A stretch of DNA of 64,000 nt from Chiloscyllium plagiosum. Lineage: Eukaryota. How positions within the stretch are numbered: position 1 is the stretch's first letter; each line of letters opens with the position of its first letter. The notes below the pieces were generated by a model that was given only the letters and a program-made list of their open reading frames with translations, was not told the DNA's origin and searched no databases. The stretch is taken from assembly GCF_004010195.1 (NCBI RefSeq), contig NC_057718.1, forward strand, positions 59,168,838-59,232,837, read 5' to 3'. Shown here piece by piece: positions 11,760-64,000 of the stretch. Position numbers and translations under genes: made by a program.

Positions 11760-12485
11760 AATCTTTAAACTTTAACCACAGTGTGGATGGGGGTATGACA
11801 TGGCAATTTAAAAATAAAGGGTCTCTCATGTAAAGTGGAAGTGAAGTTTTTTTTTGCCTTTCAGAAGGTTGCAAGTCTCAGAACTAACTTCCGCGGACAT
11901 CACTAAAGCTAAGAGTCATAGAATAATTTTACAGCAGAGGTAGATTGACTGTTTTGTTGGTCAAGAATCTATGCTTATTGGTAGTATGCAGGAATGTGTT
12001 GTTTTATTTAAATTCATTCACAAGAAGAGGGCATCACGAGTTAGGGAAGCATTTATTGCCCAGCCCAGAGGGCACTGCCACGGTTCTGTAGTCACATGGA
12101 TGGCAGTGTCCTTCTGTAAATGATATTAGTGAACCAGGTACATTTTTCCTGACAATCATGGTCATTATTAGATTCATAATTCCAGATTTTTACTGAATTC
12201 AAATTCTATTATCTACCATGGCAGGATTCAAATGCAGATCCCTAGAACATTACCTGAGTCTAATGAAGAGCTCCAGCCCGAAATGTCAATTTTCCTGCTC
12301 TTCAGATGCTGCCTGACCTGCTGTGCTTTTCCAGCAACACACTCTCATATCTGGATTAATAGTCTGGTGATAATACCACTAGGCCATTACCTCCCCAACT
12401 ATAATTAGAGGCCATAATCAGATTAGTCATTATCTTACTAAATGGAGGAGCAGGCCCAACAAGGTCAAATAATCTTCTACATCTT
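11760..12485 (+). mobile_element. Old CR1 3' fragment split by a SINE
   Basis: CR1 tail sequence at about 11760-12000 resumes at about 12400-12485. Confidence 0.6.
12001..12395 (-). mobile_element. tRNA-derived SINE (family B) containing a Penelope terminal-repeat insertion at about 12260-12350 (+)
   Basis: Paralogous to 5763-6092; insert reads ctaatgaagagctccagcccgaaatgtc...ccagcaacacactctc. Confidence 0.8.
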
Positions 12486-13001
12486 CTAAATCTTTTATTC
12501 ATAGGTTCATAAGTTAGTAGCCAGAGGAAGAATGCTGGCACCTAGACTGCTGTTGCTGAGAATGATGGTAGGCCTTCTAACCAGCTCACCTCAGTACACT
12601 CACTCCAAGCACACTGCATTGCGGTTTGTTTTTAAACTGCTCACTGCCTTAGCGAGAGAAATCAAGAATCCCAAGTAAGGTCAAACATGAGGCAGGTATG
12701 GGTTTCTCAAACAGTAAAAGGACTGGAATCGCATTTTGCAAACCGGAGATGAATATCCCAGATGTAGTAGCTGCCTGAATGAGGGGCAGAGGTAACGGAA
12801 AACACATCGGCACTGGTATTGATGATGTCATTCTTTTTTTCCCCAATGCTAAGCACCACATTATTTTGGTTCATGATAAATGTTGAATAAAGAACATGCA
12901 TTATTTGCTCTGCAAACAATATGATTGAAAAGACTAAAAGCTTGGAATAGTTCAGCTACTGAGCCCATGTAGGTCTGTACAGTGCACTTAGTTCTATAGG
13001 A

Positions 13002-13205
13002 GCAAGGCAAAAGTGAGGACTGCAGATGCTGGAGATTAGAGTTGAGAGTGTGGTGCTGGAAAAGCACAGAGGATCAGGCAGCATCCGAGGAGCAGGAAAA
13101 TCGACATTGCAGGCAAAAGCCCTTCAATCAGGAATGATACCAGTCAATTTTCCTGCTCCTCGGATGCTGCCTGACCTGCTGTGCTTTTCCAGCACCACAC
13201 TCTTG
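13002..13205. mobile_element. Penelope terminal-repeat inverted dimer
   Basis: Inverted arms at about 13038-13105 and 13143-13208; perfect 16-bp TSD acttagttctatagga at 12986-13001 and 13206-13221. Confidence 0.9.
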
Positions 13206-13339
13206 ACTTAGTTCTATAGGAATCTATTGATTCTGAGCATGACCTTTTTGTGGCACATCAGCGCCAGTCTATCCTCATTTTTTCATTTGTGAAATATTCT
13301 GGACAGGAATTCTGGGTAAAAGTTCTTCTTTCTCTGAGT

Positions 13340-13600
13340 GTCAGCCTAGATTCAGTCAAAAGATTATTTGTTCAAGTCCCATAGCAAAAGCTAGACTGCA
13401 TTAAGTGGGCTGAAAACCCAAATGCAATACTGATTTGGTCCCACACTTATGGATGCAGCATTTTTTGGATGTAACATTAATCCAAGGCTTTGTTACCTTT
13501 ACAGGAAGATGGAAAAGACATGGCATTATTTTGGAAAATAGCATGAGTTGTACCAATGGTTTTAAGGAAGGAATCCTCTGCCACACAAATTTCACAAGGA
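13340..13600 (+). mobile_element. Ancient Deu-domain SINE-like relic
   Basis: gttcaagtccc B-box followed by degenerate Deu-core-like sequence; heavily diverged. Confidence 0.4.
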
Positions 13601-13997
13601 TCAATAGCCATGTCATTGTACAGAAATCTGCAGCTAAGCTATAGTGAAGAAATGGAAGGGGAAATAACAGTGCTTATTCTCTGCAGCCATTCAAGTTAAT
13701 TAAGTAATCCTTTTTAACCTAAAATCCAATTAGCATATTTACTTAAAACGAATCAATAGAGTTGCATTTTAAATGCTAATAATGCATCTTTTTCCACACA
13801 TAGATGATATGATTCATCTGATAATGGGTATAAATGGAGGACAGTGAAATTTTTTTCATTAACTCAAAAAAAGATGAGATAATCATTTTATTGGACATTC
13901 TAAAAGGAGCTCCCGTTCAAATTGGGACAGACTACTGAAGATTATCATTGCACAGTACTAAAAATACACTAGTGTATTTGTACATTGATGCACTTAC

Positions 13998-14056
13998 TGC
14001 TTTCAAATCCAGAGGGAAAACAATGGTGCACAGAGGTAGGAAGGTTTTCCATAAAT
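13998..14056 (-). CDS. VRK2: VRK-family kinase exon (59 bp): (K)FMENLPTSVHHCFPSGFES(S)
   Basis: ttattccag acceptor, gtaagt donor; phase 2/1 bridges the 121-bp and 173-bp exons exactly in frame with no stop. Confidence 0.88.
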
Positions 14057-14634
14057 CTGGAATAAGAATAGCGAATGCATTATCATAAGTCACAGGAATA
14101 CTTTCCAACAGTAAAGGGTTGTTAGCTACAAAACCTCAGATCATCGAGAAAATGTGTAAAATTGAATATTTTGCATTTTGACTTCAACTCTTTATCATAA
14201 TAGTCTTTCAGAGCATTTAATCTTTCACTATGGATAAATGCAAAGAAGCTCATAAAAGCTCAAGCATATTAATTTTCATCTCAACTAAAATGAAATGAAG
14301 TTTTTCTTGCAATTTCATGTTAAAATGTTTTATCAAAAGCCGAGTCATTGCAATTATCTGCATTAATGCTGATACATTAATGTTGGACTGGGGAGAATTA
14401 GCTTATCACACATAATATGCATTATTATAAATACTTTAACATCTATCTCTAGATTTAACTACCTTTAATTAAATAATAAATTATTACATACAAATCTGTA
14501 TTACATCACAATGCAATTTTAACACTTTGGATATAGGATTTATACATGCTAATTCTGATCTGTCCATTATCAGATTTGACACTTCATCTAGTGAATTTTG
14601 AGTTACTTTCCATTTTTAGTGATCTGAAGGACAA

Positions 14635-23310: not shown

Positions 23311-23650
23311 GGAGGAGGAATTTGTACAAATGGCACTACAGGATGCAATGGCTAAAAATGTTATGCAAATCATTTGGTTTGTATACAATATGTGAATAGC
23401 TTTTTTATTTCATGAACCCTTGTGTTTCACCATTCTTGTTGTTGTCTCTGTCTCTGAGTAGAGTCTAAACACTTTGTAGCACCCTGTGGCATCACTTTGT
23501 GGCCTTTAATGAGGCATAGTGGTTGTGACTGGACTGCAATGATCACCAAATCCATCATGACAACAGGGGTATGAACCGCACCAACTCACTCCAGTATCTT
23601 AGCATCCCCCAACTCCCAATCCTCACTGTCTACTGTTCAGCTGGCTGTGT

Positions 23651-23900
23651 CCTGAAGAAGGGTTACAACCAAAACATCAATTTCTCCACCTCCTGATGCT
23701 GCCTGGCTTGCTGTGTTCTTCCAGTCAAAGAGTGTGGTGCTGGAAAAGCATAGCCGGTCAGGCAGCATCTGAGAGCAGAAGAATCAACATCTCAAGCATA
23801 AGCTCTTCACCCTCTGCAATTCTCATTTTCTCCCTGCTGTGTTCTTCCAGTCTCCTGCCTGTCTACTTTGAATGCCAGTATCTGCAGCTTTTTGTCTCTA
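23651..23900. mobile_element. Penelope terminal repeat (+) with a second terminal repeat inserted in it (23727-23834, mostly -)
   Basis: 18-bp TSD tgctgtgttcttccagtc at 23709-23726 and 23835-23852. Confidence 0.85.
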
Positions 23901-24568
23901 ACCAAGTCTGCCCTGCTAGACTAGTCTGTCTTCAGTGCGGCGGGAGAGAGCAGCGCACTGGAAGATGCCAGGATGGCTATCTGGAAGTGGAGCTCCAAAT
24001 GTCAGTGGTGGAAGGGTATGTGCAGTGAATCACGCCCTGGTCTGCAGATTGACCCTGGGCAAGATGGAGCTCTTTTAAAGCAGTGAGTTGAACTCACAAA
24101 AGGTCTTTAATAAGCACTAATGAGCATCATTTAGGAACTCACTGCTGTCTAATGAGAATCGTACCACACCGTGTGAGGAAATGAATAAGATACAGTGAAA
24201 TGATCTTAATAACTGAGATTGGCCTGACTGAAATCTCACTCAAATCTACTGCTCATTTCCCCATTGCCCAGAGAATGATAACATTTTATTCAAAATACCT
24301 TTCATTATCAGGTTGATGTTTAGAGCGTTTGGATTCAGGATCGAGCAAAAGTCCCTGTCATCTAAAATGCTGGACAAGACCCTGGAGTTTTCTAATATCC
24401 AAAAGTACTGGACAAAATCCAGAGCTCAGGCTGCAACAAACACACACACAGCCAGAATGATTTCAGTCTGGGACTATTATTCAGCCTGGAATTCCAATTT
24501 ACACCTCCATTCTAGGAGAACAATCAACCAAACCTAACACTCTGGACTGAAACTAACTTTTACACCTC

Positions 24569-24789
24569 CGGAGTGTGGTGCTGTAAAAGCACAGCAGGTC
24601 AGGAGCATCCGATGAGCAGGAGAATCAACATTTCGGGCATAATCCCTTCATCAGAATGAGACTTGCTGATGAAGAGCTTATGCCCGAAACATCAATTCTC
24701 CTGCTCTTCGGATGCTGCCTGACTTGGTGTGCTTTTCCAGCACCACACTCTCGACTCTGATCTCCAGCATCTATAGTCCTTACTTTCTG
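24569..24789. mobile_element. Penelope terminal-repeat inverted dimer with two opposed hammerhead-like cores
   Basis: Minus-strand core at about 24625-24655, plus-strand core at about 24666-24695; TSD ctaacttt(t)acacctc at 24553-24568 and 24790-24804. Confidence 0.9.
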
Positions 24790-24843
24790 CTAACTTTACA
24801 CCTCGGCTACCAAACGCAGGCTACACAGATACCCAACATTCAA

Positions 24844-25060
24844 GTTCAGCAGGTCTAACAGCATCTGTGAAGAGAAATCAAAGTTAATGTTTCAAGTCCA
24901 GTGATCCTTCCTGAGTTCTGCATTCTGAGGAAGGATCACTGGACCTGAAGTGTTAACTTTGATTTCTCTTCACAGATGCTGTCAGACCTGTTGAGCTTTC
25001 CCAGCAACTTCTGTTTTTGTTTCTGATTTATAGCATCAGCAGTTCTCTTGGTTTTTACCA
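24844..25060. mobile_element. Inverted dimer of a second Penelope terminal-repeat family
   Basis: About 70-bp arms at 24847-24914 and 24925-24995; CTGAGGA core; TSD aacattcaa at 24835-24843 and 25061-25069. Confidence 0.85.
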
Positions 25061-25096
25061 AACATTCAACTTTAATCAAAATCCATTTACACATAC

Positions 25097-26223: not shown

Positions 26224-26532
26224 ATGCATGGTGGTCCAGCAGAGATACAGAAGAAAACTTTTGATTCTGCAATTGTAAGGAAAGGAAATCCGCTGAGCAG
26301 CATGCTGAAATAAATACAGTGGGCAGTCAAGAAAATATGCATGAAATGGTTTTACTTCTAATACACCTGTATGAAAGATAACTCTGCCAGTTTATGACTA
26401 GATAAATAAGATTGAACCTCACGAAGTTTTAATCCTGGCTTCATAAATGATGAGGATAAATGCCACAAGTTCACCTGTCTATCGGGTTGGCAGACTTCTC
26501 AACAGTGCAACATAGTTACAGCCATCAACATA

Positions 26533-26657
26533 GGCAAAAGGAAGCACTGCGGATGCTAGAAATTAGAGTCAAAAGTGTGGTGCTGGAGAAGCACAGCAAG
26601 TCAGGCAGCATCCGAGGAACAGGAGAATCGACGTTTCGGGCAGAAGTCCTTCATCAG
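26533..26657 (-). mobile_element. Penelope solo terminal repeat with intact hammerhead core boxes
   Basis: Minus strand CTGATGA-AGGAC-TTCT-GCCC-GAAA-CGTC; 14-bp TSD cagccatcaacata at 26519-26532 and 26655-26668. Confidence 0.9.
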
Positions 26658-28600: not shown

Positions 28601-28604
28601 CCTA

Positions 28605-28981: not shown

Positions 28982-29081
28982 GGTCCTGACGAAGGCTTTC
29001 AGCCTGAAATGATGACTTTCCTTCTCCTCGGATGCTGTCTGACCTGCTGTGATTTTCCAGCTTCACATCTATTGACTCTGA
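28982..29081 (+). mobile_element. Penelope solo terminal repeat
   Basis: CTGACGA-AGGC-TTTCA-GCCT-GAAA; TSD caaaacta(a/g)tg at 28971-28981 and 29082-29092. Confidence 0.85.
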
Positions 29082-34347: not shown

Positions 34348-34379
34348 CAACAGCAGGAGCAATAGAACAAATCTCAGGC

Positions 34380-34452
34380 AACCTGAGGTGGGACATGAAC
34401 CCACAATTCCTGGTTTAGAAAGCCAGCGCCTTATCCAAGAGGCCAGTGGAGC
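34380..34452 (-). pseudogene. tRNA-Arg-like pseudogene (CCT-family body, anticodon now TCT)
   Basis: GCTCCACTGGCCTCTTGGATAAGGCGCTGGCTTTCTAAACCAGGAATTGTGGGTTCATGTCCCACCTCAGGTT; 73 nt, colinear with recalled vertebrate tRNA-Arg(CCT); acceptor stem broken. Confidence 0.8.
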
Positions 34453-36924: not shown

Positions 36925-37030
36925 GTTCTGAGGAAGGATCACTGGACTCGAAACATTATCTCTGATTTCTCTCCACAGATGCTGCCAGACCTGCTGAGCT
37001 TTTCTAGCAATTCCTGGTTTTGTCTCTGAT
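36925..37030 (+). mobile_element. Penelope solo terminal repeat (second family)
   Basis: ctgaggaaggatcactggactcgaaac; matches 24925-25030. Confidence 0.85.
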
Positions 37031-37239
37031 CCTGACTACACTGGTATCCTTTTCCATTTTCCACACTAACCAATTTTGTAGTTACACTGATCTTCCTATT
37101 GTAGGGGCAATTCTACAAAATTGTCGGCATGACTGAGTAGAGGACAGATGTCCATAGAAAACAAAAGACAATAACTTCAATACTCCAATTCCATAATTAT
37201 GGATATCACTGTGAAATATTGCAGCCACTGCTGTGGAAG

Positions 37240-37770: not shown

Positions 37771-38247
37771 GTTGCTTATCCTGCAAATGTTTCCATTGTC
37801 ATTGCGTTCAAGTCAAAAACTTGCATAATAATATTAGATACAGTCTTATTGCACTGTTGGCTGAGCCTGGCGGTCACTGTTTCAAGCCCCATTATAAAGA
37901 CCAAAGTACAAAGTCTCGGTTGACACTCCACTGGATGGAAAGTCTGCTGCCTGCCAGAGATGTGAAAATGAGGCTCTAGTGAACATATACTATTTAAAGA
38001 GCCTGAATCTCTCGCAATTCTAGCTGGAAATACTCTGCAGATCTGGCAGCATCTGAAGAGAGAATCTTTTAAACGCCTCAATTTAATATTGTTATCATTA
38101 CCTTAGCTTGGTAAAGTCAGGTGAAACAACTGGGCATTAAATATAGTGAGTACGCTAAAGAGACAAGTAAAAACTGAACCTGAACTTAATTCTATTTTTA
38201 AGAAAAGTTTAGAATGCAAACTTCTCAGAAACAAAAGCCATCTGTTT

Positions 38248-41994: not shown

Positions 41995-42092
41995 CAAATA
42001 AAATGAAAATTGCTGGAGAAACTCAGCAGGTCTGGCAGCGTCTGTGGAGAGAAAACAGACTTAAACTCGAGTCGAAATATCAACTCTTACAG
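41995..42092 (-). mobile_element. Penelope terminal-repeat fragment (second family)
   Basis: tgctggagaaactcagcaggtctggcagcgtctgtggagagaaa is the reverse complement of the 36965-37010 type. Confidence 0.75.
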
Positions 42093-43699: not shown

Positions 43700-46600
43700 C
43701 CTCTGGGCACTCTCAAAATCTGTTCTATTTGATTCCTTCTCCTCCACCATCAGCAGCATTAAAACTTTTATTTTCTAGTGGAGAGATTTTTTCCCAGATT
43801 CCAACTGATGCCATTTTAGTTGGGGCTCCTTGATACCATACACAGTCAATCACAACCTTGATATCTCGGACAATCACTCTCAACTCACCTCTGGAGTTCA
43901 GGTCCATTATCCAGGTTTGAACGAAAGCTGCAAAGGGGCAAAGGTTGAGTGGCCTTGATGGAACCAGTGTCAGTGTAAGTCAGCAGGTTATTACTGTACA
44001 AGTGCCACATAATAGCACTGCCAATAGCCTCTTTCATCACTTAGAAGATCCGACTGGACTGACAAGATGATAATTGGCTGGGTAAAATTTGCTCGTCTTT
44101 GCCTACAGAGCATATTTGGGCAATTTCCCATAATGCCAGCGTTATAACTCTACTAGAACATCAAGGGCATGAGTGGCTCTGGAGCACATGTCTTCAGTAC
44201 GACTGTTGGAAAGTTGTGAGGACCCCCAGCCTTTGCAGTAGCCAATGCCTTCAGCTATTTCTTAACACCATGTGGAATGAAACAAAATGGTTGAAGACTA
44301 ACATTTGGGATGGTGGAGGCCTCACAGTGGATTATCCACTTGCCAACTCTGGCTGATGATTGTTGGAAATTACTCCACTTTGACTTTGGCATTGACATGC
44401 TAGGCTCCTCTATCAGTGAGGATGGGGATATTTGTGGAGCTTCTTCTTCCTGTCGGTTGCTTAAATGTTTACCACCATTCATGAACGGTTGTGGCAGGAC
44501 CGCAGAGTTTAGATCTGATCCGTTAATTTCGGGATCACTCTGTCCACTGAATGCTGCTGACATGGTTTGGTATACAATCAAACCTGTGTTGTAGTTGCAC
44601 CAGATTGAAGCCTCATTTGTAGGCACATAAGTATTTAAGGTGCTACTCATGGCATGTGTAGCTGCACTCTTCATTTAATAAGGTTTATCTCCCAGTTTGA
44701 AGGTGATAGTAGAATATGTAAAGCCTTGAGGTTACACATTACTTTTCAATATAACTCTGTTGCTGTTGATGGCCCATAGCATCTTATCAATGCCCAATTT
44801 GAATTGCTAGATCTATTCAAAGGTTTCCCATTTCACATGTTGGTAATTTAGATTTTATTATCACATACTCAAGTACAGAAGTACAGTGAAAAGTATATAA
44901 TGTTTCCACACACAGTGCCATCTTGGGTACAAAGGTACCAAGTACAAAAATCTTAGGTACAAAATGGTAAGAGAAATAGAGTTTAAAAATTAGGCATTAC
45001 CTTCATAAAGTAGAAAAATAAAGAAATAAGGTAATAGTCAACATTAATTTAAACTAGAAAATAAAGGAATAAAGTTAAAAGCACAACAGTTTTTAATGAT
45101 TCCTCCTTTTAGCTCACTCTCCAAGAGACCTCAGCCACCTGCTCTCATTGCCGTGGGTACCAGGGACCATGCTCACCACTTGCTCTTCCTGTTTTGGGCC
45201 GCAATGCCATCTGCTGAAACTGTTGCCTCCCCAAAACTCCCCCTGCCGCACAATATGATGGAAAGTATCATCAATGTGAAGACAGGGCTTTGTCTCCACG
45301 AGGCCTATGCAGTTATCACTCCTATCCACAGTTCACAGACCGTGCATGTGTCAGGTAGCTTGGTGACGATAAGGTCAAGTGCCAAGGAAGGCGGAAGCGA
45401 CATGTTGGGTAGATTTTGCATTGATTACGGTGGTGGTGGATCTAGTGGCAGTTGAATCAACAGTGGATCTTGCAGCAGTTGTGGAGTGGTTGTCCTGGCA
45501 GCAATCATGGAGGCGGTTGTCATGATAGCAGTGGAAGTGATGTGCAGAGTAGACATCGGGTATGTCCATCTTCCGCAGCTACACCAGCGCTACTCCCCAC
45601 CTTTTCCTCTGCTACATTGGTGACTGTATCAGCGCCATCTCATGCTCCCACAAGGAGTTCATCAGCTCCACGAACACCTTCTACCCCGACATCAAGTTCA
45701 CCTGGACCATCTCGGACACCTCCCCCCCCCCATCTCGACCTCTCCATCTCCATTTCCGGTGACCCATTCAACACAAACATCTACTACAAACCCACCTACT
45801 CTCACAGCTACCTTGACTATACGTCTTCCCTACCTCCTGTTAAAACGCTATCCCTTAATCCTAAATCCTCCGCCTCCACAGTATCTGCTCCCAGGAGGAC
45901 CGATTCCACCACAGAGCATCCCAGGTGGCTTCCTTCTTCAAAGACTGTAATTTTCCCTCCCATGTGGTCAACGATGCCCTCCAGCTTATCTCCACCACTT
46001 CCCGGACCTCCGCCCATGAGCCCCACCCTTCCAATTGCAACAAGGACAGAATACCACTAGTCCTCTCCTTCCACCAACTTCTAGATACACCGCATCATCC
46101 TCTGCCATTTCTAGTACCTACAAACAGACCCCCACGCCAGGGATATATTTCATTCCCCACCTTATCTGCATTCTGGATAGACCATTCCCTCTGCAACTCC
46201 CTTGTCAGGTCGACACCCCCACCAACCGACCTTCCACTCCTGGCACCATACCCTGCCACCACAAACTTTGCCCACACCTCCCCCCTCATTACATCCAAGA
46301 ATCCTTCCACATCCAACAGAGACTTACCTGTACTTCCACATTCATCATCTACTGTGTCCGTTGCTCTCGATGTGGTCTCCTCTATATTGGGGAGACAGGA
46401 TACCAACTTGCGGAACATTTCAGAGAACATCTCCGGGACACATGCACCAAACAACCGCACCGTCCTGTGGCTGAACACTAACTCCCCCTCCCACTCTGCC
46501 AAATACATGCAAGTCCTGGGCCTCCTCCACCTCTACACTCTAGCCACCCAACATCTGGAGGAAGAACACCTCATCTTCCACCTTGAAACCCTCCAACCAC

Positions 46601-47140
46601 ACAGGATCAATGTGAATTTCACCAGTTTCCTCATTTCCCCTCCCTCCACCTTATCCCAGATCCAACCTTCCAACTCGACACCACACTCTTGAACTGTTCT
46701 ACCTGTCCATCTTCCTTCCCACCTATCCACTCCACCCTCCCCTCCAACCTATCATCTTCACCCCCACCTTCATCTATCTATCGCATCTTAACCGCCTTCC
46801 CCCCAGCCCCAACTGCCTCCCATTTGTCTCTCAGCCCCCTTGGCCACCACCACCCCTCCCCCCGGCCCATTCCTGATGAAGGGCTTATGCTCGAAGCATC
46901 GAATCTCCAGTTCCTTGGATGCTGCCTAGCTGGTTGTGTTTTTACAGCACCATACTCTTCAATGACGACAAGGTCAAGTAAGTTTTTCCCATCACCGTAA
47001 GTGGTAATCAGCTGGAGATTTCGTTGTTATATTTGACCTGATGTCTTGAAACTTCACGAGGTCTAAGGCAACCCCTTGATGATCCTAGACCTCTGGGAGA
47101 CGTATAACCAGCTATGTCACTGCTTCAAGTGGCACTGCCC
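43700..47140 (-). mobile_element. Second LINE family copy, interrupted at about 44848-45240 (another LINE tail) and 45381-46962 (Penelope)
   Basis: ORF 43725..43907 LNSRGELRVIVRDIKVVIDCVWYQGA; 43860-44560 is colinear with 1990-2370 joined to 4527-4850. Confidence 0.7.
45381..46962 (+). mobile_element. Second Penelope-like (Neptune-type) element, truncated, with an apparent inverted 5' segment (45381-45560)
   Basis: RT C-terminus (YKPTYSHSYLDY), IIYCVRCSRCGLLYIGETG..HFREH, hammerhead-like motif at about 46869-46905; 17-bp TSD tgacga(t/c)aaggtcaagt at 45364-45380 and 46963-46979. Confidence 0.92.
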
Positions 47141-49081
47141 ATAAGAGGGAACTGTTTGCCTCATGTTGCTTGGCAGTTCATGGAACTGGAAGGAATTTCC
47201 CCGCTCCAACTCCACATACGGATGTTTTAAATCTCAGGAAAGACCTACAGCAAAGTGTTAGCACTTAACAGTGGGCCTTCCCCACTAGACGTGTCTAAAG
47301 GCTTTCATCAGTCTCCAAAGGGTGGCAAGATGTGGGCTGCCTGGATTAAATTCTGTCTAGTGAACTTGCCATACAACATAGACATAGACTTGGCACAGGT
47401 CCTCAACAACACAAGCATTTTACAAATGCATTATGCCACTCAAGGTGCTCCTGGCATTGGTGCTCAATAATGGGCAAGGGCACAACATCCACTACTCAAT
47501 TCAAACGTAGATGCCTAACTGTAAGACAATAGACATATTATAGTTTGTTCATTTTCATTGCTAATTAGCATTAATTGGTGCAGCTAGTCAAGTGGCAACA
47601 TTGGGCAGTAAAGCTATATTGAGTGCACGTGACATGCTCAATATCACTTCAGTCCAATAACTTTGGCTTGGAGTGTCTCTATAGTATTTTATACTAAAGC
47701 GTACTGGCACACAATTAGCTTCAGTTCACAGATATTTTAACTGAATGACACTTTATCAGGGGCACTCTGTCATGTCATGCAAAAGTCATTATTTCTTCCG
47801 TTCCTATTCCGATTCATAATACCAAATGGGAGTTTGACAATGTTGAATGAAAAATGCTTATTTCCAGAGTCGCTGCATTTCAAAAAGCACTTAGCAGTAA
47901 ACTTGAAAACTATTCCTAATATACATCATAATTTAAAGTAATATTGTACAATAAGGGAAAAAAGTCGCAATTAGAAAAATTGAGGATATTTAAATATGTC
48001 GAACTGAACTGGTCTGCAGTAACAATCAGAATCACATGCTCCTTTTCTCATATTAAGGTTGCATTTTCTGAAGTCAGAGAGACTCCACTGATTTTTAAAA
48101 ACAGCAGTGATTTTGGGATTCACAGAATCCACAGGATAAGGACGTGGGCTGTGCAGACCACGAATGTGTACCTTGCATTCAGCATTGCTGACCCTGCTGC
48201 AGTTTCATGCGTTCACATCAGCTTTGAGGGGTTATAGTTCACAGTTCCTGGAAGGTGTCCTGATAAGGGAAAATTTTGATCGGGAAATCTAAAAGATGTT
48301 ACCCAATCCCTCTACTAAACTAAGGTCCTCCACTCACTCCCATTGGCCCATATATACTTCATGCCAACTTATGGCATTCTATACTCTTTCACCCAGTATT
48401 GACTTTATACAGAACCAGTGAACTGTAGAACAACAATCGCATGTGTGATAAAGCTTGAAAAAATTAAAATCATAATTTCCTACTTTCTTGACAAAAGTCT
48501 TTAACTCGACGTCCGTTAAAGTTTCAAAAATACAATCATTCAAACTTTCAATAGCAGAAACTAAAAGTACTTGACACCTCTTTATCTTGTGTAAACAAAC
48601 ATATGATTGATCAGAAAAAAAGTTGTCAATCATTCAATGTTTTCAGTTGGACACAACTATTTCAATAATGTATTAGATGGCTGGATTCTCAGATGAATGC
48701 TTTGAGGTTTGGCTGAATGTAGACATCCATTAGTCTGCTGAAAGAGCTGCATCCAAGGGAAAATACTGCTTGCTTGACAGCTCTTTCTCTGTGATCTATT
48801 CTATCAATTGGACAATTGAGCATTTCTTAGATGTTTAGTTTTTTAAAAAACTTTTAGTTTTCCTAAATGTGACATCAGTTGTATTCAGGACATTTACGAG
48901 TCATCAAGAGGGCATCCATAACAAAATTAACATTTCTGATCAAGTATTAATTCGGTTTCTCTCCACAGATGCTGCCAAATGTACTGAATATTTCTCGTTT
49001 TTTTTAAAAATATTGGGGATTTCCAGCATCTGCATAACAAATATACAAATCAAGAGTAAGGGTTGGACAACCAATACCTCA

Positions 49082-49204
49082 TGAAGGGCTTTTGCCCGAA
49101 ACGTCGATTTTGCTGCTCATCGGATGCTGCCTGAATTGCTGTGCTCTTCCAGCACCACTGATCCAGAATCTGGTTTCCAGCATCTGCAGTCATTGTTTTT
49201 ACCT
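49082..49204 (+). mobile_element. Young Penelope solo terminal repeat, truncated inside the hammerhead core
   Basis: tgaagggcttttgcccgaaacgtcg...; TSD caatacctca at 49072-49081 and 49208-49217. Confidence 0.9.
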
Positions 49205-49224
49205 AATCAATACCTCAAGTCTAT

Positions 49225-50099: not shown

Positions 50100-53000
50100 C
50101 ATAGAGTCACAGAGCACAGAAAATTTCCCAAACTGAACTAATCTCATTTGCCTATGTTTGGCCCATATGCCTCTAAACCTTTTCTATTCATATACCTGCC
50201 CACATGTTGTAATTTTATTTGCTTTTACCACTTCCTCTAGCAATTCATTCCATATACACAGCATCTTAGGCTTGAAAAGTTGCCCCTTTTAATCTTTCCC
50301 TGCTCACCTTAAACCTGTGCCCTCTAGTTTTGGACTCTCCCAGCCTGGGGAAAAGACTTGGCTATTCACCTTATCTATGCCCCTCATGATTCTATAAACT
50401 TCTATAAAGTCACGCCTCAACCACCTACTCTCTAGTGAAAAAGGTCACAGCCTATCAGGTTGTCCTTTTAAATCAAACCCTCCACTCCTAGCAACATAGT
50501 TGTAAATCTTTTCTAAACCCTCTCCAGTTTAATGACATCCGTCCAAAGGAGGGCTACCAGTACTTCAATGTCTTGTACAGATGCAACTTGATGTCCCAAC
50601 TCCTTTACTCAATCCTCTGACCAATGAAGGCAAACTTGCCAAACGCCTTGTTTACCGCCGTCTACATGTGACATTACTTTCAAGCAACTACGTATCTAAA
50701 TCCCTTTTCTCTCTTTTCAGCAACACTCACCCAAGTCCCTACTGTTAATTGTGTAAGTCCTGCCCTGGGTTGTCTTCCCAAGATGCAACATTTATCGAAA
50801 TAAAGCTCCATCTGCCATTCCTCAGCCCATTGGCGCAGATGATCAAGATTTTGTTGTACTCTTCTTCACTGTCCACTATACCACAATTTACTATCCACAA
50901 ACTTGCTAACCATGCCTCTGAAATTTTCATCCAAATCATTTAAATGAATGAAAAACTTCAGTAGACCCAGCACTGATCCTTGTGGCACACTGCTAGTCAC
51001 AGGCCTCCAATCCTAAAAACTACCCTCTACCACCACCCTTTGTCTCCTGCCGTCAAGCCAATTTTGTATCCAATTGGCTAGGTCTCCCTGAATCCCATGT
51101 GACCTAACCTTACTAACTCGTCTACCAAGCGGAACCTTGTCAAGGGCCTTACTGAAGTCCACATAGATAACATCTACCGCTCTGCCTTCATCTGTCTTCT
51201 TAGTCACCTCTTCGAAAAACTCAACTTAATTTTGTGAGACACTGTTCCCCATGCACAAAGCCACACTGACTTTCCTTAATCAATCCTTGCCTTTCCAAAT
51301 GTAAATCCTGTCTCTCAGAATCCCCTCCAACAACTTACCCAACACTGATGTAAGGCTTACTGGTCTATAGGATTTACCTTGCAGCCTTTTTTAAATAAAG
51401 GCACATTAGCCACCCTGCAGTCTTCCGGAACCTCACCAGTGGCTGTCGATGATTCACATCTCTCTGCTGGGGCCCCGCAATCTCTTCCCTAGCTTCCCAA
51501 AAAGTGTTGAAATACAGCTGATCAAATCCCATGGATTTATCTAACTTCATGCATTTTAAGAGCTCCATCACTTTCTCTTCTGTAATGTGGACTCTTTAAA
51601 GATATTGCTATTTATTTCTCCAAATTCACTAACTTCCATGTCCTTCTCCACAGTAAATACTGATGCAAAATATTCATTTAGTATCTCACCCATCTCCAAT
51701 GGTTCCATGCATAGATGGCCTTGTTGATCTTTATGGGGCCCTGTTCTTTCACTAGTTACCCTTTTGCCCTTAAAAGTACTTGTAGAATCTCTTTGGATTC
51801 TCCTTAACCTTATTTGCCAAAGCTATCCCATGACTCCTTTTTGCCCTCCTAATCTCCTTCTTAAGTGTACTTGTCCTACTCCCCGTGCACTCCTCAAGGG
51901 GGTCACTTGATCACGGCTGCCTGTACCTTTAAGAACATAAGACACAGAAGCAGAAATTAGGCCATTCAGTCCATCGATTCTGCTCCACCACTCAATCGTG
52001 GCTGATAAGTTTCTCAACCCCATTCTCCTGCTCTCTCCCTGTAATCCTTGATCCCCTTGGTACTCAAGAACCCATCTATCTCAATCTTAGATATACTCAA
52101 TGACCTGGCCTCCACAGCCCTCTATGACAATGAATTCCATAATTTCACCACTCTCTGGCTGAAGAAGTTTCTCCTTATCTCAATTCTAAAAGGTCTTCCC
52201 TTTACCGTAAGAGTACCTGACATATGTCGTCTTCTTTTTCTTGACCAGAGACTCAACATCTCTCATTATCCAGTGTTCCCTACTCCTGTCAGGTTTGCCT
52301 TCACACTAACAGGAATACTCTGTCCCTGAACACTCCTGACCTTGCCTCTTAAACAGCCTCCCCAATCCTGATGAGGAGCTTTTGCCCAAAATGTCAATTC
52401 TCCTGCTCCTCAGATGCTGCCTGACCTGCTGTGCTTTTCCAGCACTATACTCTCAACTCTGATCTCCAGCATCTGCAGACCTCACTTTCCTCCTTTTAAG
52501 AGTTCCTGTGTATTAGCATCGAAAATGGCCTTTTAGAACTTTAATGTTGAGACCAGACCTATTGTTTTCTATAACTATTTTAAAACTAACAGAATTATGG
52601 TGACTGTCCTGAAGCACTCTCCCACTAGGACCTCAATCACTTGCCCTGCCTTATTTCCCAAGAGGATGTCAGGTTTTGCTATTTCTCTATTAGGTACATC
52701 TACATATTGGAAAAGAAAATTTGCTCGAACACGCTTAAGAGATTCCTCGCCATCCAAGCCCTTAACACTATGACAGTCCCAGTCTCTGTTTGGAAGTCAA
52801 AATCCCCTATCATTACATAGAAATCATAGAATCCCCAAAGTGTGGAAGCAGGCTATTCAGCCCAGAGTCCACACCGACCTTCCGAAGAACATTCTACCCA
52901 GACCCACCCTTATAACCTTGCAATTCCCATGGATAACCCACCCAGCCTGCAAATCTCTGGACACTATGGGCAAGTTGACATGGCCAATCCAAATAAGTTG

Positions 53001-53180: not shown

Positions 53181-53832
53181 ATTGAAAAAAAATACTGGGT
53201 ACATGCCTTTGACGTAGAACCTAAAACATCAGAGCTTAAAGGTAATCACTTTAAGTAACCTCTTCAGGATTTTACCCCAACACTTCTGGTCTGAGACTAA
53301 CAATAACTCTTTACTCTAAGAAAATTCATTTCACTATATTCTTCCCTTCTCACCAGCATTGGTCTATACAACCACCTTTATCCAAAAATTTCACAAGATT
53401 TCTCCACTCAAAGTAAAACTGAAACCAAATATTTGCCATTCTGAATTATAGGTGTTTCTCCAAGCTTAGAAAAAAAGTTCCAGAAGTCTATAATAAACCT
53501 TGAAGCCCCATTATTTGCCTTGCTGGGTCATAAAACAATCCAAGATAAACAAAAGTCCAACAGTAGCACAAAAAAAATTCACTCTAAAACCAGGCCTCAC
53601 CTGCTGCTTGTCATGATGACAATATAATAGGAAAGTTCACCAGACCCAATCTTCCCTTGCTATTTTATTGATGACCTGGTGCAAGAGTGCTGGTAAAGTA
53701 CAGATCAAATTATTCAGATATCTCCAGAAATTTTCATCACAATTATGTAATTTTGATGTTGTAGAAGTGCTTCCACAAGTTATGAGCTTACAGTTTGCCT
53801 TCTATAGTAGAGTGGTAGACAAATGCCTCACA

Positions 53833-54106
53833 GTCAAAACATGTGGTGCTAGAAAAGCACAACAGGTTGGCAGCATCCACAAAGCAGGACATTCCTATGA
53901 AGGGCTTATAAATGAAATGTTGAGTCTCCTGCTCCTCAGATGCTGCCTGAGCTGCTGTGCTTTTCCAGCACTATACTCTCAACTCTGATCTCCAGCACCT
54001 GCAGACCTCACTTTCCTCCTTTTAAGAGTTCCTGTGTATTAGCATCGAAAATAGCACCGCACCTTTCAACTCTGATCTCCAGCATCTGCAGTCCTCACTT
54101 TCTCCT
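53833..54106. mobile_element. Penelope terminal-repeat inverted dimer containing a 128-bp copy of 52399-52526
   Basis: 12-bp TSD aaatgcctcaca at 53821-53832 and 54107-54118. Confidence 0.88.
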
Positions 54107-54150
54107 AAATGCCTCACATTAAAAGGTTCAATTCTACATATTCTGCAGGA

Positions 54151-54729: not shown

Positions 54730-55250
54730 GCTGTGCTTCTCCTCCTCCTCGGACAGAAGAGCAGCTGTCTGTCTCTGTTGACACAAGGTCAAGAAATTTA
54801 AAATTAGGAGGGAGAAGATGGGGGGGAGGACAACCTCACACAATCAGCATAATGCATACGGAAATTCGAGTAGCAGAAGCAAAAACAATTTAAAATGCTT
54901 TCCAAATCTAAGGGTTCTTGTAGCACAGTGGTAGTGTCCATACTTCTGGTCTAGAAGGCCTTGTTTGAAGTCCCACCTGCACCAGAAGTGTGCAACTACT
55001 GAGCAGGTTGATGAGGAAGCTACCTATTTTCTAAATCTATGGAGAAATAGTTAACCTGTGCAGTTTTTTAAAGCCATATCTGGCTCTAATCTATCACCTC
55101 GGGTACAATGAGTAATGAGATATGTTGTGTCATGCCATTATTGTCTCATTTAATTATGCAAACCCATTTCAAAACAGGTATTTCCATCATTTAGGAGAAA
55201 TTGTACCAGATCGTACAGCTAGATATTCCATAGGACATATAAATCACTGA

Positions 55251-55379
55251 GGAGAAAGTGAGGACTGCAGATGCTAGAGATCAGAGCTGAAAATGTGTTG
55301 CTGGAAAAGCGCAGCAGGTCAGGCAGCATCCAAGGAGTAGGAGAATCGACGTTTTGGGCATGAGCCCTTCTTCAGGAAA
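55251..55379 (-). mobile_element. Young Penelope solo terminal repeat
   Basis: Minus strand CTGAAGA-AGGGC-TCAT-GCCC-AAAA-CGTC; perfect 14-bp TSD atataaatcactga at 55237-55250 and 55380-55393. Confidence 0.92.
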
Positions 55380-56501
55380 ATATAAATCACTGACTCAGCC
55401 TCAGCCTTCCATTTCAAAATACATTGGAAAGTCCCAGGTCAGCACATCTGAATAGGAAGTTGTGTCATTAAAACTGTCAACATTCACATAAGCATCCAAC
55501 ACTTTCAAGGGTGACATTATGATTTGGAACAAAATATTTAACACGAGGCTAAAGTACAATACTATGTCTACCCTGTTCCTTACCTTAAATAATCATCTGT
55601 GTCAGCATGCAAATGGAAGTGCAGAATAAAAGTTTGTACAAAGTCTCTTTTTAAACCCGTCAAAAATCTAGATGTACGGTCAAAGGGTTCTGGATCCTAC
55701 TACTTTCCTGCTGACCCCCATTCTCACAAAAAAAAACAGGTCTTTCCAATGTTATTAACACATAGCCCTTTCTCCATGAAAGATATTCAAGGAATCCCAA
55801 ACGTGAATTACGAGGTTCCACACAATCACTGCTATCCTTCCACAGTTGCTCTTCTTTTGCCCTCTAGGCATTGTATAGATTCTTATTTCCATTTTAATTG
55901 ACCTATGTACTTTAGTTAAGTAACTCTTCAGTTTACACATTTTCTTGGGTATTTCTTCTGCATTTTCAAGATCAATTTCAAGAATGCATTCCATTTCCCC
56001 TCAGCTGAGATATCATTCACTGATAGCTCACAATTACCTTATTTTAGCTCAACCCTCATTCAACTGATGGCTTGCTTTTGAAAGTAGGTATCTTACTCCA
56101 AGACTTCAAAATGAGTTACAGTACAAAACCTTTTTTAAAAACAATCCCTAGTTGAAGGGCCTGACAGAATAGCTAAAACAATTCGAACGAATTTGAAAAG
56201 AAACAAATCAAATTCAGTTTCAGTGTCCAAGTTATGGTATCAGATGTGACAATGTCATTACTTTCAAGATTATTATATTACTGCATTACCAGAGGAGTAA
56301 AGTCTGTGCTTCTGGGATAGTACTAATTCCTGCATGGGTCAGCAATAAGCATTCATAACCCATACAGCAGTTGGTTCACTGTAGCTATACAGGCTGGATT
56401 AAAGTGTCAGACACACAAACAAGACACACAATATAAATTCTGCCCCAATCTGGCAGTGTAGATGGCTAGTTACACAGTAACTGAATAGATGTCATTCCTA
56501 C

Positions 56502-57261: not shown

Positions 57262-57920
57262 TAAACAGATAGATGGAGACAGACCCCAGAGAGACAAAAA
57301 GACATGAAAGGAATAGGTATAGGAGATTTATGGATAGCAGACCAGGACAGGACAGAAAAAAAGCTGAATAAATGGTAATGAGGTAATTGTGCTAAAAGCA
57401 TCCCATTTTGTAACAGAAAGTGGGAATGGGGTGGGTGAAAAAAAAACATGCAAGGACAGGATTAGGCCCGAAAGTTATTGAATTCCATGTTGAATCCTAG
57501 AGACTGCAAGGTCTCCAAGTGGAAAATGAGAAGTTGTACTTTGAGCTTACGCTAAGGCTTACTGGAATATTGCAGCAGGTCTGTGAAAAAAAATGTTGGT
57601 GTGGGAACAGGGGAATGTGTTGAGTTGTCAACTGGATGCTCAGGGTCATTTTTGCAAACCGAGAGCAGATGTTCTGCAAACTGGTCTTGTAGCCAGCGCT
57701 TCATCTCCCTGATGTAGAGGAGACCATATTGTGAACAGTGATTATAGCAGATTAGATTGAGTGAAGTATAGGTAAATCATTGCTTCGCCTGGAAGGTGTG
57801 TCTGGGGTCTTGGATAATGAGGGAGTGAGGAGGTAAACGAACAGGTAATACACCTTCTGCAATTGCATGGGAAGGTGCTGTGGGGAGGTGTATGAGTGAT
57901 GGAGGAGTGGAGAGAGTGTC
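57262..57920 (-). mobile_element. Old Penelope-like GIY-YIG fragment; an inverted terminal part lies at about 57920-57985 and 59693-59937 (+)
   Basis: Minus strand TYTSLNLICYNHCSQYGLLYIREMKRWLQDQFAEHL at about 57660-57775. Confidence 0.75.
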
Positions 57921-57984
57921 AGCACAGCTCATCCACTGTCTCAATCGTAGCTCTTACTGTCTCTTATTCAGCTTTCTTCCTTCC

Positions 57985-59692
57985 TGGCTTCAAACATTAT
58001 GGGCTGCAAAACGAAACACAGCAAGATAGCGGACAAAGACACATCCCTCCCTGACGTGCTCAACGTTTTCTATGCTCGATTTGAGCAGAATGCCAGCGGT
58101 GCAGTGATGCCTGCCCCGACAGCTCCAGACGCACCTGTTCCCTCTGTCATCACTGCAGATATCAAATTGGTCTTCCTAGGATTCAACCCAAGGAAAGCGA
58201 CAAGTCTTGACGGTGTTCTCAGTCAAGTACTCAGATCCTGCCGTGGAGCAGGTAACTGGCGGAGATATTCACTGACATCTTCAACCTGTCCCTCCTACAA
58301 GCTCAAGTCCCCAACTGCTTCAAGAAGATCACCATCATCCCATTCTTAAGAAAGCACATGGAATGTGCCTTAGTAACTACCGCCCAGTGGCTCTGACCTC
58401 AATAATCATGAAGTGCTTTAAGAGGCTGGTCATGGCTCACATAAGCTCCAGGCTTCCAGCTTACCTCAATCCCCTACAATTTGCCATTCAATGTAATAGG
58501 TCCATTGTGGATGCCATTTCGCTAGCCCTGCACTCACCCCTGGTACATCTGGACAACAAGGACACCTATGACAGACTGCTGCTCATTGGCTACCGCTCCA
58601 CCTTCAACACCGTTACCCCCTCTAGACTGACCTCAAAACTCCGTGACTTTGGTCTCAGCTCCACACTCTGCAAGTGGATCCTCAGCTTTCTGACCCACAG
58701 ACCACAATCAGTGAAGATAGACAATTACACCTCCTCCACTGTACCACTCAACACTGGAGCCCCCCCGAGGATGCATCCTCAGTCCCCCTACTGCACACCC
58801 TGTACACACACAACTGTGTTGCCAAATTCCAAATGAATGCCATCCATAAGTTCACTGGCATAGCAGGACAGATGTCTAACAATTCCGTAAAAATACAGAA
58901 GGGAGATAGACCACTTGGTGTCGTGGTGCAGTGAGAACAACTTCTCTCTCAATGTTGCTAAAGAACTGATCACTGACTTCAGAAAGAAAGGAGAAGAATA
59001 TGTCCCCACCTACATCAACAGAACTGAGGTTGAGAGGGTGGAGAGCATCAAGTTCCTCGGAGTGACGATAGCCGACAACCTGTCCTGGACTTTAACGTAC
59101 ATGTGATGAACATGAAGGCACAACACCGCCTCTTCTTCTTCAGGTGGATCAGGAAATTTGGCACGATCATAAGGACCCTCATAAACTTCTACGGATGTAC
59201 CATTGAAAACATACAGTCTGGGTAGAAAACAGTCAGGTACGGCAACTGCTCTGCCCAGGACCATATGAAACTACAGAAGGTGTTGTGCACAGCCCAGACC
59301 ATCACAGAAACCAACCTTCCATCCATGTGCTCCATTTGTACCCCTCGCTCCAACAGAAAGGTTACCATCATCATCAAAGACTCATCGCACCCCAGTAATG
59401 ATCTCCTACAACCTCTTCCATCAGGCAGAAAACACACCCACCAGCAGGTTCAGGTACAGCTTTTTCCTGGCTGTTATTAGACTGATAAATAGACTCTCTA
59501 GCCTCAAATAATGCTGATCTTGCCAACGTTGATCTTGCCTAGTGCATGCCCTGTGCAATATAACCTGTATACCTCTGTCTAAATCTTTTTACAACCACTG
59601 ATCTGTACATCTTTGCTTACTAGGATCTGTCTGCGCTGCTCATAAACATAGTTTTTCACTGTATTTCGGTACACGTGACAATCAATCTATCT
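57985..59692 (+). mobile_element. Rex1/Babar non-LTR retrotransposon, 5'-truncated and frameshifted
   Basis: NYRPVALTSIIMKCFKRLV, LNPLQFA, HLDNKDTY, WCSENNFSLNVAKELITDFRK, KFLGVTI. Confidence 0.92.
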
Positions 59693-59937
59693 GTTATCTT
59701 TTTGTTTACTTACCCCTTTCATATCTCTCTGTGCGGCCTCTATCTCCATCTATCCACTCAGCTTTCCCCCCCGCTGTCTTCACCCCTACCACTCACATTT
59801 GCTTCTGTATACCGACTACTTGTTTCTAGCTGTAACAGTTCCAGTGAAGAGTCCACAGCCTCAAAATATTAGTTCTGCTTTCTTCTCACAGATGCTGCCA
59901 CATGTGCTGAGTTTCTCCAACAACTTCTGTTTTTGTT

Positions 59938-62045: not shown

Positions 62046-62138
62046 CTCTTTGTGATTTCTGAAGCCTAGAAGTAAGTTTGCTGACTTGATATCACCATGG
62101 ATGTATTCGTGTTCATGAATAAACTCCAAAATCTCAAG
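62046..62138 (-). CDS. VRK2: VRK-family kinase exon (93 bp): catalytic loop, LEILEFIHEHEYIHGDIKSANLLLGFRNHKE
   Basis: Manual translation of the minus strand; tttctgcag acceptor and gtatt donor; HGDIKxxN catalytic loop of VRK kinases; phase 0/0. Confidence 0.93.
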
Positions 62139-62361
62139 CTGCAGAAATGAAATTTTTTAAAATGAATATTAGTCTGTAAGATACGGAGAATAATACATTT
62201 TCCTACAGGTTACATTATTCATGATTTAACAGTCGTAATAATAAGCTAACATAATCATGACCTGATCCACATTAACCATCCAGCTAACTCAGTCAACTCT
62301 CTACCTCCCAAGATAATTTGATTTGCTATGGTCTGCAGCTTTCAATACAAATATACAAAGC

Positions 62362-62537
62362 AAGAGTACAATTGCAACATTTAAGAGGCATTTGGATGGG
62401 TATATGAATAGGAAGGGTTTGTAGGGACATGGGCCACGTGCTGGCAGGTGGGACTAGATTGGGTTGGGATATCTGGTTGGCATGGACAGATTGGACCGAA
62501 GGATCTGTTTCCATGCTATACATCTCTATGACTCTAC
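62362..62537 (+). mobile_element. Young CR1 3' end
   Basis: Reverse complement of the 33907-34075 type tail. Confidence 0.88.
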
Positions 62538-62559
62538 TCGACCTCTTGAACCAGCACTG

Positions 62560-63228
62560 CCCATCAAAAGATAATGTCCAATCTGGTTGCCCCACATTCC
62601 CACTCACCTACAATAACCTTTCACCCTCCTGTTTATAAAGAATCCTTCTAGCTCTGCCTTAAAAACATTCAGTCTGCTTCTTTCATCTTTTGGCTCTTGA
62701 CACTGTGAGGAAAAAAACTGCATCTCATCTCTGTCTTAGATGGGTTATCCTTTATTTTTGAAGTGACCCTGAGTTGTAGAATCTCCCACAAGAGGAGAAC
62801 TCCTTTCCACATCAACATTATCAAAACCTTTCAGGACCTTATATATTTCAGTAAAGTTGTCTCTCTCTAAATGCCAGAGGATTCAACCACAGCAGCCCAA
62901 TCTTTCCTAAAGAAAACCTGCCCATTAAAGAAATTAGTCTGGTAAAACTTGCCTGAACGGCTTCTTACAATATATTTACATTCTCCCTTAAATATGGAGA
63001 GCACCAGTTATGGTCTCGTCAATGCCCTTTTTAGCTGAAGCATAACATCCCTTCTTTTTGTGTTCAAGTGTGCTTGTAATAAACATAATATTATATTTGC
63101 TTTCATAATTACACTCTGCACCTGCTCACTAATCTTCTGTGATCCATGCAGTGGCACACCCAGATCTCTCTGCATCTCGCAACTCTGCAATCTCTCACAT
63201 TTATTAGTATGATTCTTTTCCATCCTTC
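62560..63228 (-). mobile_element. Old CR1 3' fragment
   Basis: ORF 63008..63223 QRDLGVPLHGSQKISEQVQSVIMKAN. Confidence 0.85.
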
Positions 63229-63733
63229 ACACAAACATTGATACTGACGGTGGAGGCTCCAATTTCTATCCATTACATGATTGACCAGGAAACTTGACTG
63301 CTCTTACCACTTGCCACTGGTCCATGCAGAAGGATTTAGAAGTTGATACCCAACTATTATGGACTCATTACCTTTCTTCTTGAGCAGGACTTGAACTCGG
63401 AGCTTCTGGCTCCAAGGCAGGGATGCTATCCATAGCACCTGGTACTGTACAAATCACAACCAATAACAAACCAAATGGCGAAAACATCTCTGAAATTTAA
63501 GTTAGCTTATTGCCTCACCTCCAAAGTTTTAATAATAAGAATTTTTCAAAGTTGGTAAATCATGTTGATGTGCAATTGCACAGGTTCCTCTCATGCATTA
63601 CACTGGTTAATTCCTCTTATGCAAAAACCCAGAGACAGACCGGTCTTTAAATGAATGAATCATGTACAAACCTAAACTGGAGTTCACCAAGCTCCTTTAT
63701 ATCTGCATCGCTAGCAGGTGTCTTGGAAATATT

Positions 63734-63835
63734 AGGAGAAAGTGCAGATGCTGGAGATCAGAGTCAAAAGGTGTGATGCTAGAAAAGCACAGGCAGCATC
63801 CGAGCAGCAGGATGGAGAGCTTAAGCATGAAACGG
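63734..63835 (-). mobile_element. Penelope solo terminal repeat, internally deleted
   Basis: 12-bp TSD cttggaaatatt at 63722-63733 and 63836-63847. Confidence 0.85.
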
Positions 63836-64000
63836 CTTGGAAATATTGCCTACAGAGATAAGCCATGCCAAGGAAGGTGAAGCAAAGCATGTCAATTTAC
63901 AAGCCTAGTTGATAGCTAGTCAGCACACATAAAAAGTTTAATCACATTTCCTTATTTATCCTGCATTTAACCTTCACTAGTGTTAAGCATTTTTAGATCA

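Follow-up and report, generated by a model that had tools for sequence, protein, structure and literature searches.

The window analysed here, 64,000 nt of the shark Chiloscyllium plagiosum (NC_057718.1, positions 59,168,838 to 59,232,837 of the forward strand), contains two long copies of a Penelope-like element (PLE) and 18 short insertions, one nested insertion counted, that belong to the same family (Table 1). The short repeats are the terminal module, meaning the pseudo-long terminal repeat (pLTR) plus tail, of an abundant Neptune-type PLE of the shark. Both long copies have this module 3' of an open reading frame (ORF) for a reverse transcriptase (RT) with a GIY-YIG endonuclease (EN), and the short copies correspond to the last 90–130 nt of the long element at 2380–4511. 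The label Neptune rather than Nematis is a presumed one for the shark element. The GIY-YIG domain of the long copy scored over the Pfam cut-off, and the nearest named relatives of the RT were Chiloscyllium punctatum proteins (88–89%), followed by invertebrate RT/GIY-YIG proteins (~50%). Between RT and EN we found CxxxxCxxC, both in the ORF at 3040–4266 and in the consensus of relatives; a zinc-finger-like Cys motif in this place is described as a Neptune/Nematis trait (PMC8557442). The two long copies were 73% identical to each other, with 3' untranslated regions (UTRs) at ~76%. The 5' part of the second long insertion (45381–45560), within its target-site duplication (TSD), had no sense match to the ORF; it may derive, in inverted orientation, from a more 5' region of the element.

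We scanned the window with two profiles seeded from ten of its copies (E < 0.05), using the reversed window as a control. Each profile gave 24 matches, the seeds necessarily among them; merged, these amount to 26 distinct pieces at 19 loci. Neither profile had a match in the control. All 13 coordinates listed in an earlier sequence-only reading of this DNA carried the module, and the profile search added four loci (38021–38064, 42006–42080, 48924–49032 and 59846–59937). Together the family occupies ~2.4 of the 64 kb. Main-type copies were 75–88% identical in pairwise comparison, in a star-like pattern with one locally duplicated pair as the exception. At least 3–4 sequence types could be distinguished by hammerhead stems I and II and by the tail, in keeping with the at least two or three subfamilies previously proposed. 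The duplicated pair, 52389–52529 and 53915–54055, consists of a module copy with ~33 nt of unique 3' flank, 95.7% identical and 1.5 kb apart, the second lying in the plus arm of 53833; it has the look of gene conversion between neighbours during one-sided repair, or else of an assembly error. The nested insertion at 23727–23834 interrupts the conserved core of a module copy that is older and belongs to a different type, either by possible self-targeting or by chance. A search of metagenome contigs with a module motif gave no match, and a shorter motif gave five viral-contig matches that were not used.

Table 1 Long copies and terminal-module insertions in the window. Module positions (+/−) are numbered from the C of CUGA.
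Feature	Position	Strand	Ends and remarks
Long PLE copy, 5'-truncated, frameshifted, Neptune-type	2380..4511	+	TSD 2358-2372 / 4512-4526 (15 bp); RT ~2440-3548; Cys linker and GIY-YIG ~3640-4143; C/T-rich 3' UTR; terminal module 4376-4511
Minimal type I hammerhead motif, front of terminal module of long copy 2380	4376..4411	+	C3 at 4380
Short tail-less copy	12260..12350	+	Starts at CUGA; no TSD above background
Head-to-head pair	13002..13205		Minus arm −5..+129 tailed; plus arm +25..+87 tail-less; 16-bp TSD 12986-13001 / 13206-13221
Older divergent-type tailed copy, split by nested insertion	23650..23897	+	No TSD; may extend upstream
Nested insertion	23727..23834		Tail-less minus arm and ~24 nt plus-strand tail; 18-bp TSD 23709-23726 / 23835-23852
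Head-to-head pair	24569..24789		Tail-less minus arm (best-preserved hammerhead, C3 24654), tailed plus arm; TSD ~24552-24568 / 24790-24804
Head-to-head pair, longer-stem-II type	24844..25055		Tail on plus arm only; 14-bp TSD 24830-24843 / 25056-25069 (1 mismatch)
Solo module, tailed	26533..26654	−	14-bp TSD 26519-26532 / 26655-26668, overlaps first CUGA bases
Solo tail-less module, third type	28982..29081	+	Borderline TSD, 11 bp, 1 mismatch, score 9
Solo module, longer-stem-II type	36925..37031	+	No TSD found
Decayed module fragment	38021..38064	−	Profile match
Decayed module fragment	42006..42080	−	Profile match
Second long PLE copy, 3' end tail-less	45381..46962	+	Hammerhead C3 at 46873; TSD 45364-45380 / 46963-46979 (17 bp, 1 mismatch)
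Decayed copy with short inverted 5' piece	48924..49032	+	Borderline 9-bp TSD
Solo module	49082..49204	+	Tail that of long copy 2380; 13-bp TSD 49069-49081 / 49205-49217 (1 mismatch)
Solo module, tailed	52366..52493	+	No TSD found
Head-to-head pair	53833..54106		Plus arm contains duplicate of 52389-52529; 12-bp TSD 53821-53832 / 54107-54118
Solo module, tailed	55251..55379	−	14-bp TSD 55237-55250 / 55380-55393
Old longer-stem-II copy	59846..59937	+	100 nt upstream 73% pyrimidine, probably retained 3' UTR; exception to fixed 5' edge
Tailed module, hammerhead part (~+6..+27) inverted	63734..63835	−	12-bp TSD 63722-63733 / 63836-63847

Most of the listed copies had been credited with TSDs of their own, of 9–18 bp. 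Clear TSDs of 12–16 bp were found at 8/13 sites (13002, 24569, 24844, 26533, 49082, 53833, 55251 and 63734), that of 24569 being 10 bp exact or ~16 bp when a 1-nt indel is allowed. Among 150 random site pairs, which served as background, two reached a score of at least 10 and 11 a score of at least 9. The TSD of 28982 was borderline by this measure, no TSD above background was found at 12260, 36925 and 52366, and the copy at 23651 had none of its own, its nested insertion having one of 18 bp. Because TSDs are present, the short copies are independent retro-insertions rather than recombination remnants, as the sequence-only reading had it. At the tailed 3' junctions (e.g. 4512, 26533, 49205, 54107 and 63734), the tail ends in CCT or a near variant and the next base is mostly A. 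The start of the TSD often overlaps the end of the tail there by 1–4 bases, which suggests slight primer-template pairing.

We numbered positions from the C of CUGA (C3) in the hammerhead, which puts the cleavage site at ~+28, and read by eye the 5' reach of 13 TSD-bounded insertions (11 short, two of them with borderline TSDs, and the two long copies). Ten of the 13 began between −5 and +6 and one at +17; the two long ones were 1.6 and 2.1 kb in length, and none began between −6 and ~−1490. This distribution is discontinuous, and an exponential truncation model was rejected at every mean length tried (P < 1e-8 for 50–1000 nt). Ordinary random 5' truncation, with the apparent edge being a loss of similarity in a fast-evolving UTR, is therefore barely credible, even though truncated PLEs were the published explanation for solo minimal hammerheads (PMC4209133), the long copies have diverged in their UTRs as noted above and some copies that lack TSDs may extend upstream. 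A TSD or a partner arm abuts the edge in the TSD-bounded cases, so no UTR is hidden there. BLAST with the 3' UTR of the long copies matched the two long copies only and none of the short ones. Seven copies without TSDs stood outside the count of 13: two start at the edge (12260 and 36925), two represent internal portions of the module and the other three may reach further upstream. The family is real and abundant, and its fixed 5' edge is an unexplained, testable regularity.

Sequencing reads gave a second view of the same boundary. With the reads of three DNA runs on the long copy, the first module bin was 5.7–14x deeper than the bin preceding it and 2.1–4.1x the mean of the four endonuclease bins, read depths not being equal to copy numbers. 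The module start, 4376, recurs among the joints listed for these runs. At the edge both long copies have an initiator-like sequence that fits the consensus YYANWYY. Ribozyme-cut 5' ends were considered and rejected: six pieces start at +17 to +39, spread around the cleavage site and not on it. Rather, the common 5' edge ~30 nt before the cleavage site argues that the template would be uncleaved RNA.

At the 3' side, the 15 arms measured ended at +85 to +95 (seven), +124 to +130 (seven) or +71 (one). The two main end classes lie ~38 nt apart, and the difference between them is the known PLE tail (~+87 vs ~+126). Head-to-head insertions with two module arms had exactly one arm tailed in 5/5 cases; both arms of an insertion were of one type, and the centres differed.

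The family consensus has the minimal type I hammerhead layout described for PLEs, catalytic core included, and with the motif in the long copies it bears out the minimal hammerhead that had been noticed in the terminal repeat. The consensus quoted in the sequence-only reading is right for the commonest type only; single copies have decayed. The core (CUGANGA, GAAA and NUH) was kept in five family copies, of which a single one, 24654 (minus), also has stems I and II and the 15.2–16.2 pair. An Rfam scan of the window detected no hammerhead family at E ≤ 10, and seven tailed shark copies showed no compensatory (two-sided) change, as is expected of neutrally decaying copies. A hammerhead-like pattern was present in 27/89 related loci. 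In 22 invertebrate motifs, whose loci are partly non-independent, pairing at the first three stem I positions was kept in 22, 20 and 20 cases, with four pair types each; the filter had demanded pairing in stem II but not at these positions. Stem I differs between the shark types as well, yet stays paired (by eye). Stem I pairs kept with several pair types in invertebrate relatives argue that the hammerhead is a real, selected structure in this PLE clade. The module folded no better than its shuffles in 8/8 copies (z −1.3 to +0.6). RNAalifold proposed a 9-bp stem between core and tail, which lacked two-sided covariation and significant single-copy z-scores and is a hint only. In the longer-stem-II type (24955–24978, 36958–36981 and 59872–59894), a pyrimidine tract, CAG and then ATG resemble a 3' splice site just 3' of the hammerhead, where the main type has CGG. 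A short peptide was also considered, since several copies have an ATG at ~+46 followed by ~27 open codons that run on through the tail; it was rejected as the frame shifts between types, and it bore no likeness by eye to any of 120 listed homologous N-termini.

The presence of a type I hammerhead raises the question of a retrozyme, in which paired hammerheads would cut monomers from tandem arrays that are then circularised and re-inserted. Joints stepping back 89 nt (4464 to 4376) were seen in 7 and 6 contigs of two runs, and vertebrate retrozymes have been proposed to be pLTR-derived (bioRxiv 10.64898/2026.07.22.740005). This origin is nevertheless very improbable for the shark copies. TRF found no tandem array of the unit in the window, and among the joints listed the tandem ones had a depth of <100, against millions for the module. 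Unit starts lie ~30 nt 5' of the cleavage site, mostly at −5 to +6 and never at ~+28, and the units show no permutation. Paired copies lie on opposite strands, where no cis dimer is possible. The retrozyme reading is largely refuted by these unit boundaries.

Relatives of the element inform the 5' end of the full-length unit. Five relatives have a hammerhead 5' of the ORF start. In two of them, the full-length invertebrate elements L007 and L011, its distance to the likely start codon is 161 and 184 nt, whereas no start codon was matched in the other three; L007 has a repeat with a hammerhead on both sides of the ORF. Judging from these relatives, the terminal module of the shark element is probably also the 5' end of its unit.

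The explanation towards which we lean is that the short repeats are solo terminal-module insertions made directly by the RT/GIY-YIG protein of the element, with RT starting internally in the 5'-most module of a hammerhead-headed RNA and running off its end. The insertions directly display the features on which it builds: they derive from the module and have TSDs, their 5' edge is sharp and single, their 3' ends fall into two classes, and inverted pairs are tailed on one arm. The module would also form the 5' end of the element RNA, which would begin at ~−5, in the 5' strand of stem I, from a promoter probably located inside the module. The endonuclease would nick the target with a 12–18 nt stagger and RT would initiate internally at one of two sites, ~+87 or ~+126. 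A start in the downstream module would give long, randomly truncated copies, and a start in the 5'-most module would run off the RNA end after 90–130 nt, like strong-stop cDNA, leaving stubs. Priming from both nicked strands, one per initiation site, would yield two cDNAs joined head to head with a single tail. The template would be uncleaved RNA, along which the ribozyme would ride without setting the ends. Parts of this scheme have precedents: the anole PLE protein nicks and extends both strands, has two internal RT starts bounding the tail and does not need hammerhead cleavage (PMC11167929), and Drosophila Penelope has an internal promoter in its pLTR (PMC2377424).

Several observations weigh against strong-stop-like copying. 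The start site of Drosophila Penelope is separated from the hammerhead by an exon and an intron that lie upstream of it (PMC2377424, PMC4209133). In the shark, the putative RNA start at the hammerhead front is deduced from DNA ends, and the initiator-like motif is short and common in pyrimidine-rich DNA. Three copies without TSDs (59846, 23652 and 52368) may extend upstream, 59846 with a 73% pyrimidine flank like the UTR of the long copies; upstream of 23652 and 52368 the alignment was weak and to one long copy only. The first module bin was only 1.4–2.3x the depth of the deepest single endonuclease bin, at the ORF end, and the C/T-rich UTR diverges faster between subfamilies, which confounds the depth step. 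Placing the module at the 5' end of the unit draws on relatives ~50% identical in protein, the window containing no full-length shark copy. Extra pLTR copies in the relatives started at the hammerhead edge in only 2/11 cases, the others at −16 to beyond −300. Compared with the shark edge count this gives a Fisher p of 0.012, with 11 copies that were hand-picked from loci fetched via the ORF and are not like for like with the shark sample. Cross-family matches limited to the hammerhead, rows L045 and L081 and the ORF-adjacent L094 copy were left out of that count. The sharp 5' edge may be special to the shark family.

An edge could also arise by preferential truncation of long templates, if RT started in the 3' module and stalled past the hammerhead fold or at the C/U-rich UTR, or if the endonuclease trimmed the new DNA there. 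The edge does fall on the 5' strand of stem I, where a C/T-rich tract (76–78% pyrimidine) also begins. Near the junction of ORF and pLTR, an ATT motif is the preferred cutting site of the anole protein (PMC11167929), and ATT lies at the edge in both long copies. We consider this account unlikely: stem I has only 3–4 bp, the module folds no better than shuffles, ATT is lost in the other two types, and long copies past the site are abundant.

Compatible with strong-stop-like copying is a self-propagating SINE-like family (SINE, short interspersed element), whose solo modules would be transcribed from a promoter within them, the PLE protein copying their RNA again in trans. Since RT starts internally, neither a terminator nor poly(A) would be required. 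The excess of short over long insertions, the fixed ends and the number of types are in its favour. So are rotifer pLTRs that suffice in cis to mobilise unrelated sequence (PMC3846280) and putatively non-autonomous PLE derivatives in Chlamydomonas (PMC8557442). Against it, copy 49082 has its diagnostic tail in common with long copy 2380, and UTR seems to be retained in longer-stem-II copy 59846, which makes long parents probable for that type as well. Identities among main-type copies reveal no short-only sublineage save the one local duplication, long elements are very abundant themselves, and we found no A or B box of RNA polymerase III (Pol III) in 6/6 copies scanned. We therefore regard such a family as doubtful. 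The sequence-only reading had proposed a non-autonomous class mobilised by the Neptune RT/GIY-YIG protein; mobilisation by that protein is almost certain, and a separate SINE or retrozyme class is not shown, given the missing Pol III box, tRNA head, tandem array and cleavage-site end and the tail of 49082.

SINEs are short, high-copy, TSD-flanked repeats whose 3' end is in common with an autonomous partner, and the shark stubs have these traits, with TSDs and a 3' end in common with the long element. They differ from SINEs in having no simple-repeat tail, A or B box, or tRNA, 7SL or 5S head (no tRNA gene was called and no such Rfam match was found on any copy), and in that their whole sequence comes from the partner. 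The repeats may work like a SINE without being one.

Among known systems, the closest are PLE insertions themselves. Minimal hammerheads have been reported from the pLTRs of metazoan PLEs, for the most part as lone motifs in copies that are truncated (Cervera and De la Pena 2014, PMC4209133). The shark motif is like these in its CUGANGA, one bulged base, G-C-closed stem II, GAAA, palindromic 15.2–16.2 and short stem I, and in occurring as dispersed single copies and as opposite-strand pairs, there 100–700 bp apart; the available portions of that paper hold no shark example, TSD analysis or fixed 5' boundary at stem I. Insertions of endonuclease-containing (EN+) PLEs have a pLTR, an adjacent inverted pLTR, an optional 30–40 bp tail and an 8–10 bp TSD (PMC3846280; PMC8557442), with the upstream copy 'variably truncated' and several solo pLTRs lacking TSDs in those accounts. 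The shark family likewise has an RT parent with a C-terminal GIY-YIG domain and Cys linker, a minimal hammerhead in the pLTR, an inverted 5' arm, a ~38 nt tail (within the optional 30–40 nt) at one end only, and TSDs. It differs in its ORF-less stubs, 12–18 bp TSDs, 9 to 1 ratio of stubs over long copies and one common 5' edge. Poseidon_Ac (Frangieh et al. 2024, PMC11167929) is similar in its two 3' ends bounding the tail, its tail-less end in an AC-rich stretch and its uncleaved RNA template, but belongs to another clade and has an ORF that starts inside the hammerhead; stubs ending at the RNA 5' end are not addressed in the portions available. Non-LTR retrozymes (PMC7229834; bioRxiv 10.64898/2026.07.22.740005) are also short, non-coding and dispersed as monomers, with a type I hammerhead and a link to PLE pLTRs. 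What defines them is circular RNA and hammerheads repeated in tandem, of the canonical kind in PMC7229834, whereas the shark copies occur singly or head to head, have the minimal type of hammerhead and begin 5' of its cleavage site. Solo minimal hammerheads linked to truncated PLEs, opposite-strand pairs, inverted pLTRs and tails are already in print. No publication describing PLE stubs in a shark, or a 5' edge that falls at the hammerhead or stem I, came up in a search that left most subscription papers and Repbase outside.

Other features were observed beside the family. An older remnant at 57471–57912 (minus) is the PLE endonuclease region of another family with no module match behind it, and 57951–58836 is a piece of an unrelated LINE-type reverse transcriptase (RVT_1). 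A tRNA-like fragment at 34388–34445 (minus) is at the Rfam gathering score (29.6 bits) and was not called by ARAGORN. The near-perfect ~30-bp hairpin at 10776–10858, with a sub-threshold miRNA-family match, is more likely a small inverted-repeat transposon relic. Outside the window, eight contigs of one GTDB 'bacterial' genome bin (L086–L092 and L094) carry animal-type PLEs, several with hammerheads, which points to contamination with host DNA.

PLE transposition and the role of the hammerhead are still open questions, for which the stubs are a large natural record. In our judgement, the 130-nt module is unlikely to work as a self-sufficient cassette with its own promoter, ribozyme and RT entry site, every solo copy being open to transcription from its first base and to re-copying in trans. 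Under that reading, the repeats would form a SINE-like class that can do without a Pol III promoter, a terminator and poly(A); the transcription start would fix their 5' end, and internal starts of the PLE RT their 3' end. The head-to-head pairs would then document in the genome how a dimeric PLE protein primes the two target strands at different sites. More generally, insertions of this kind have already been described, and the value of the shark family lies in testable detail. Its sharp edge, ahead of the ribozyme and not at the cut site, argues for an uncleaved RNA template and predicts where the RNA would start, and its two 3' ends and one-tailed inverted pairs would carry the two-site initiation known from in vitro work on a single anole element over to a further clade, in vivo.

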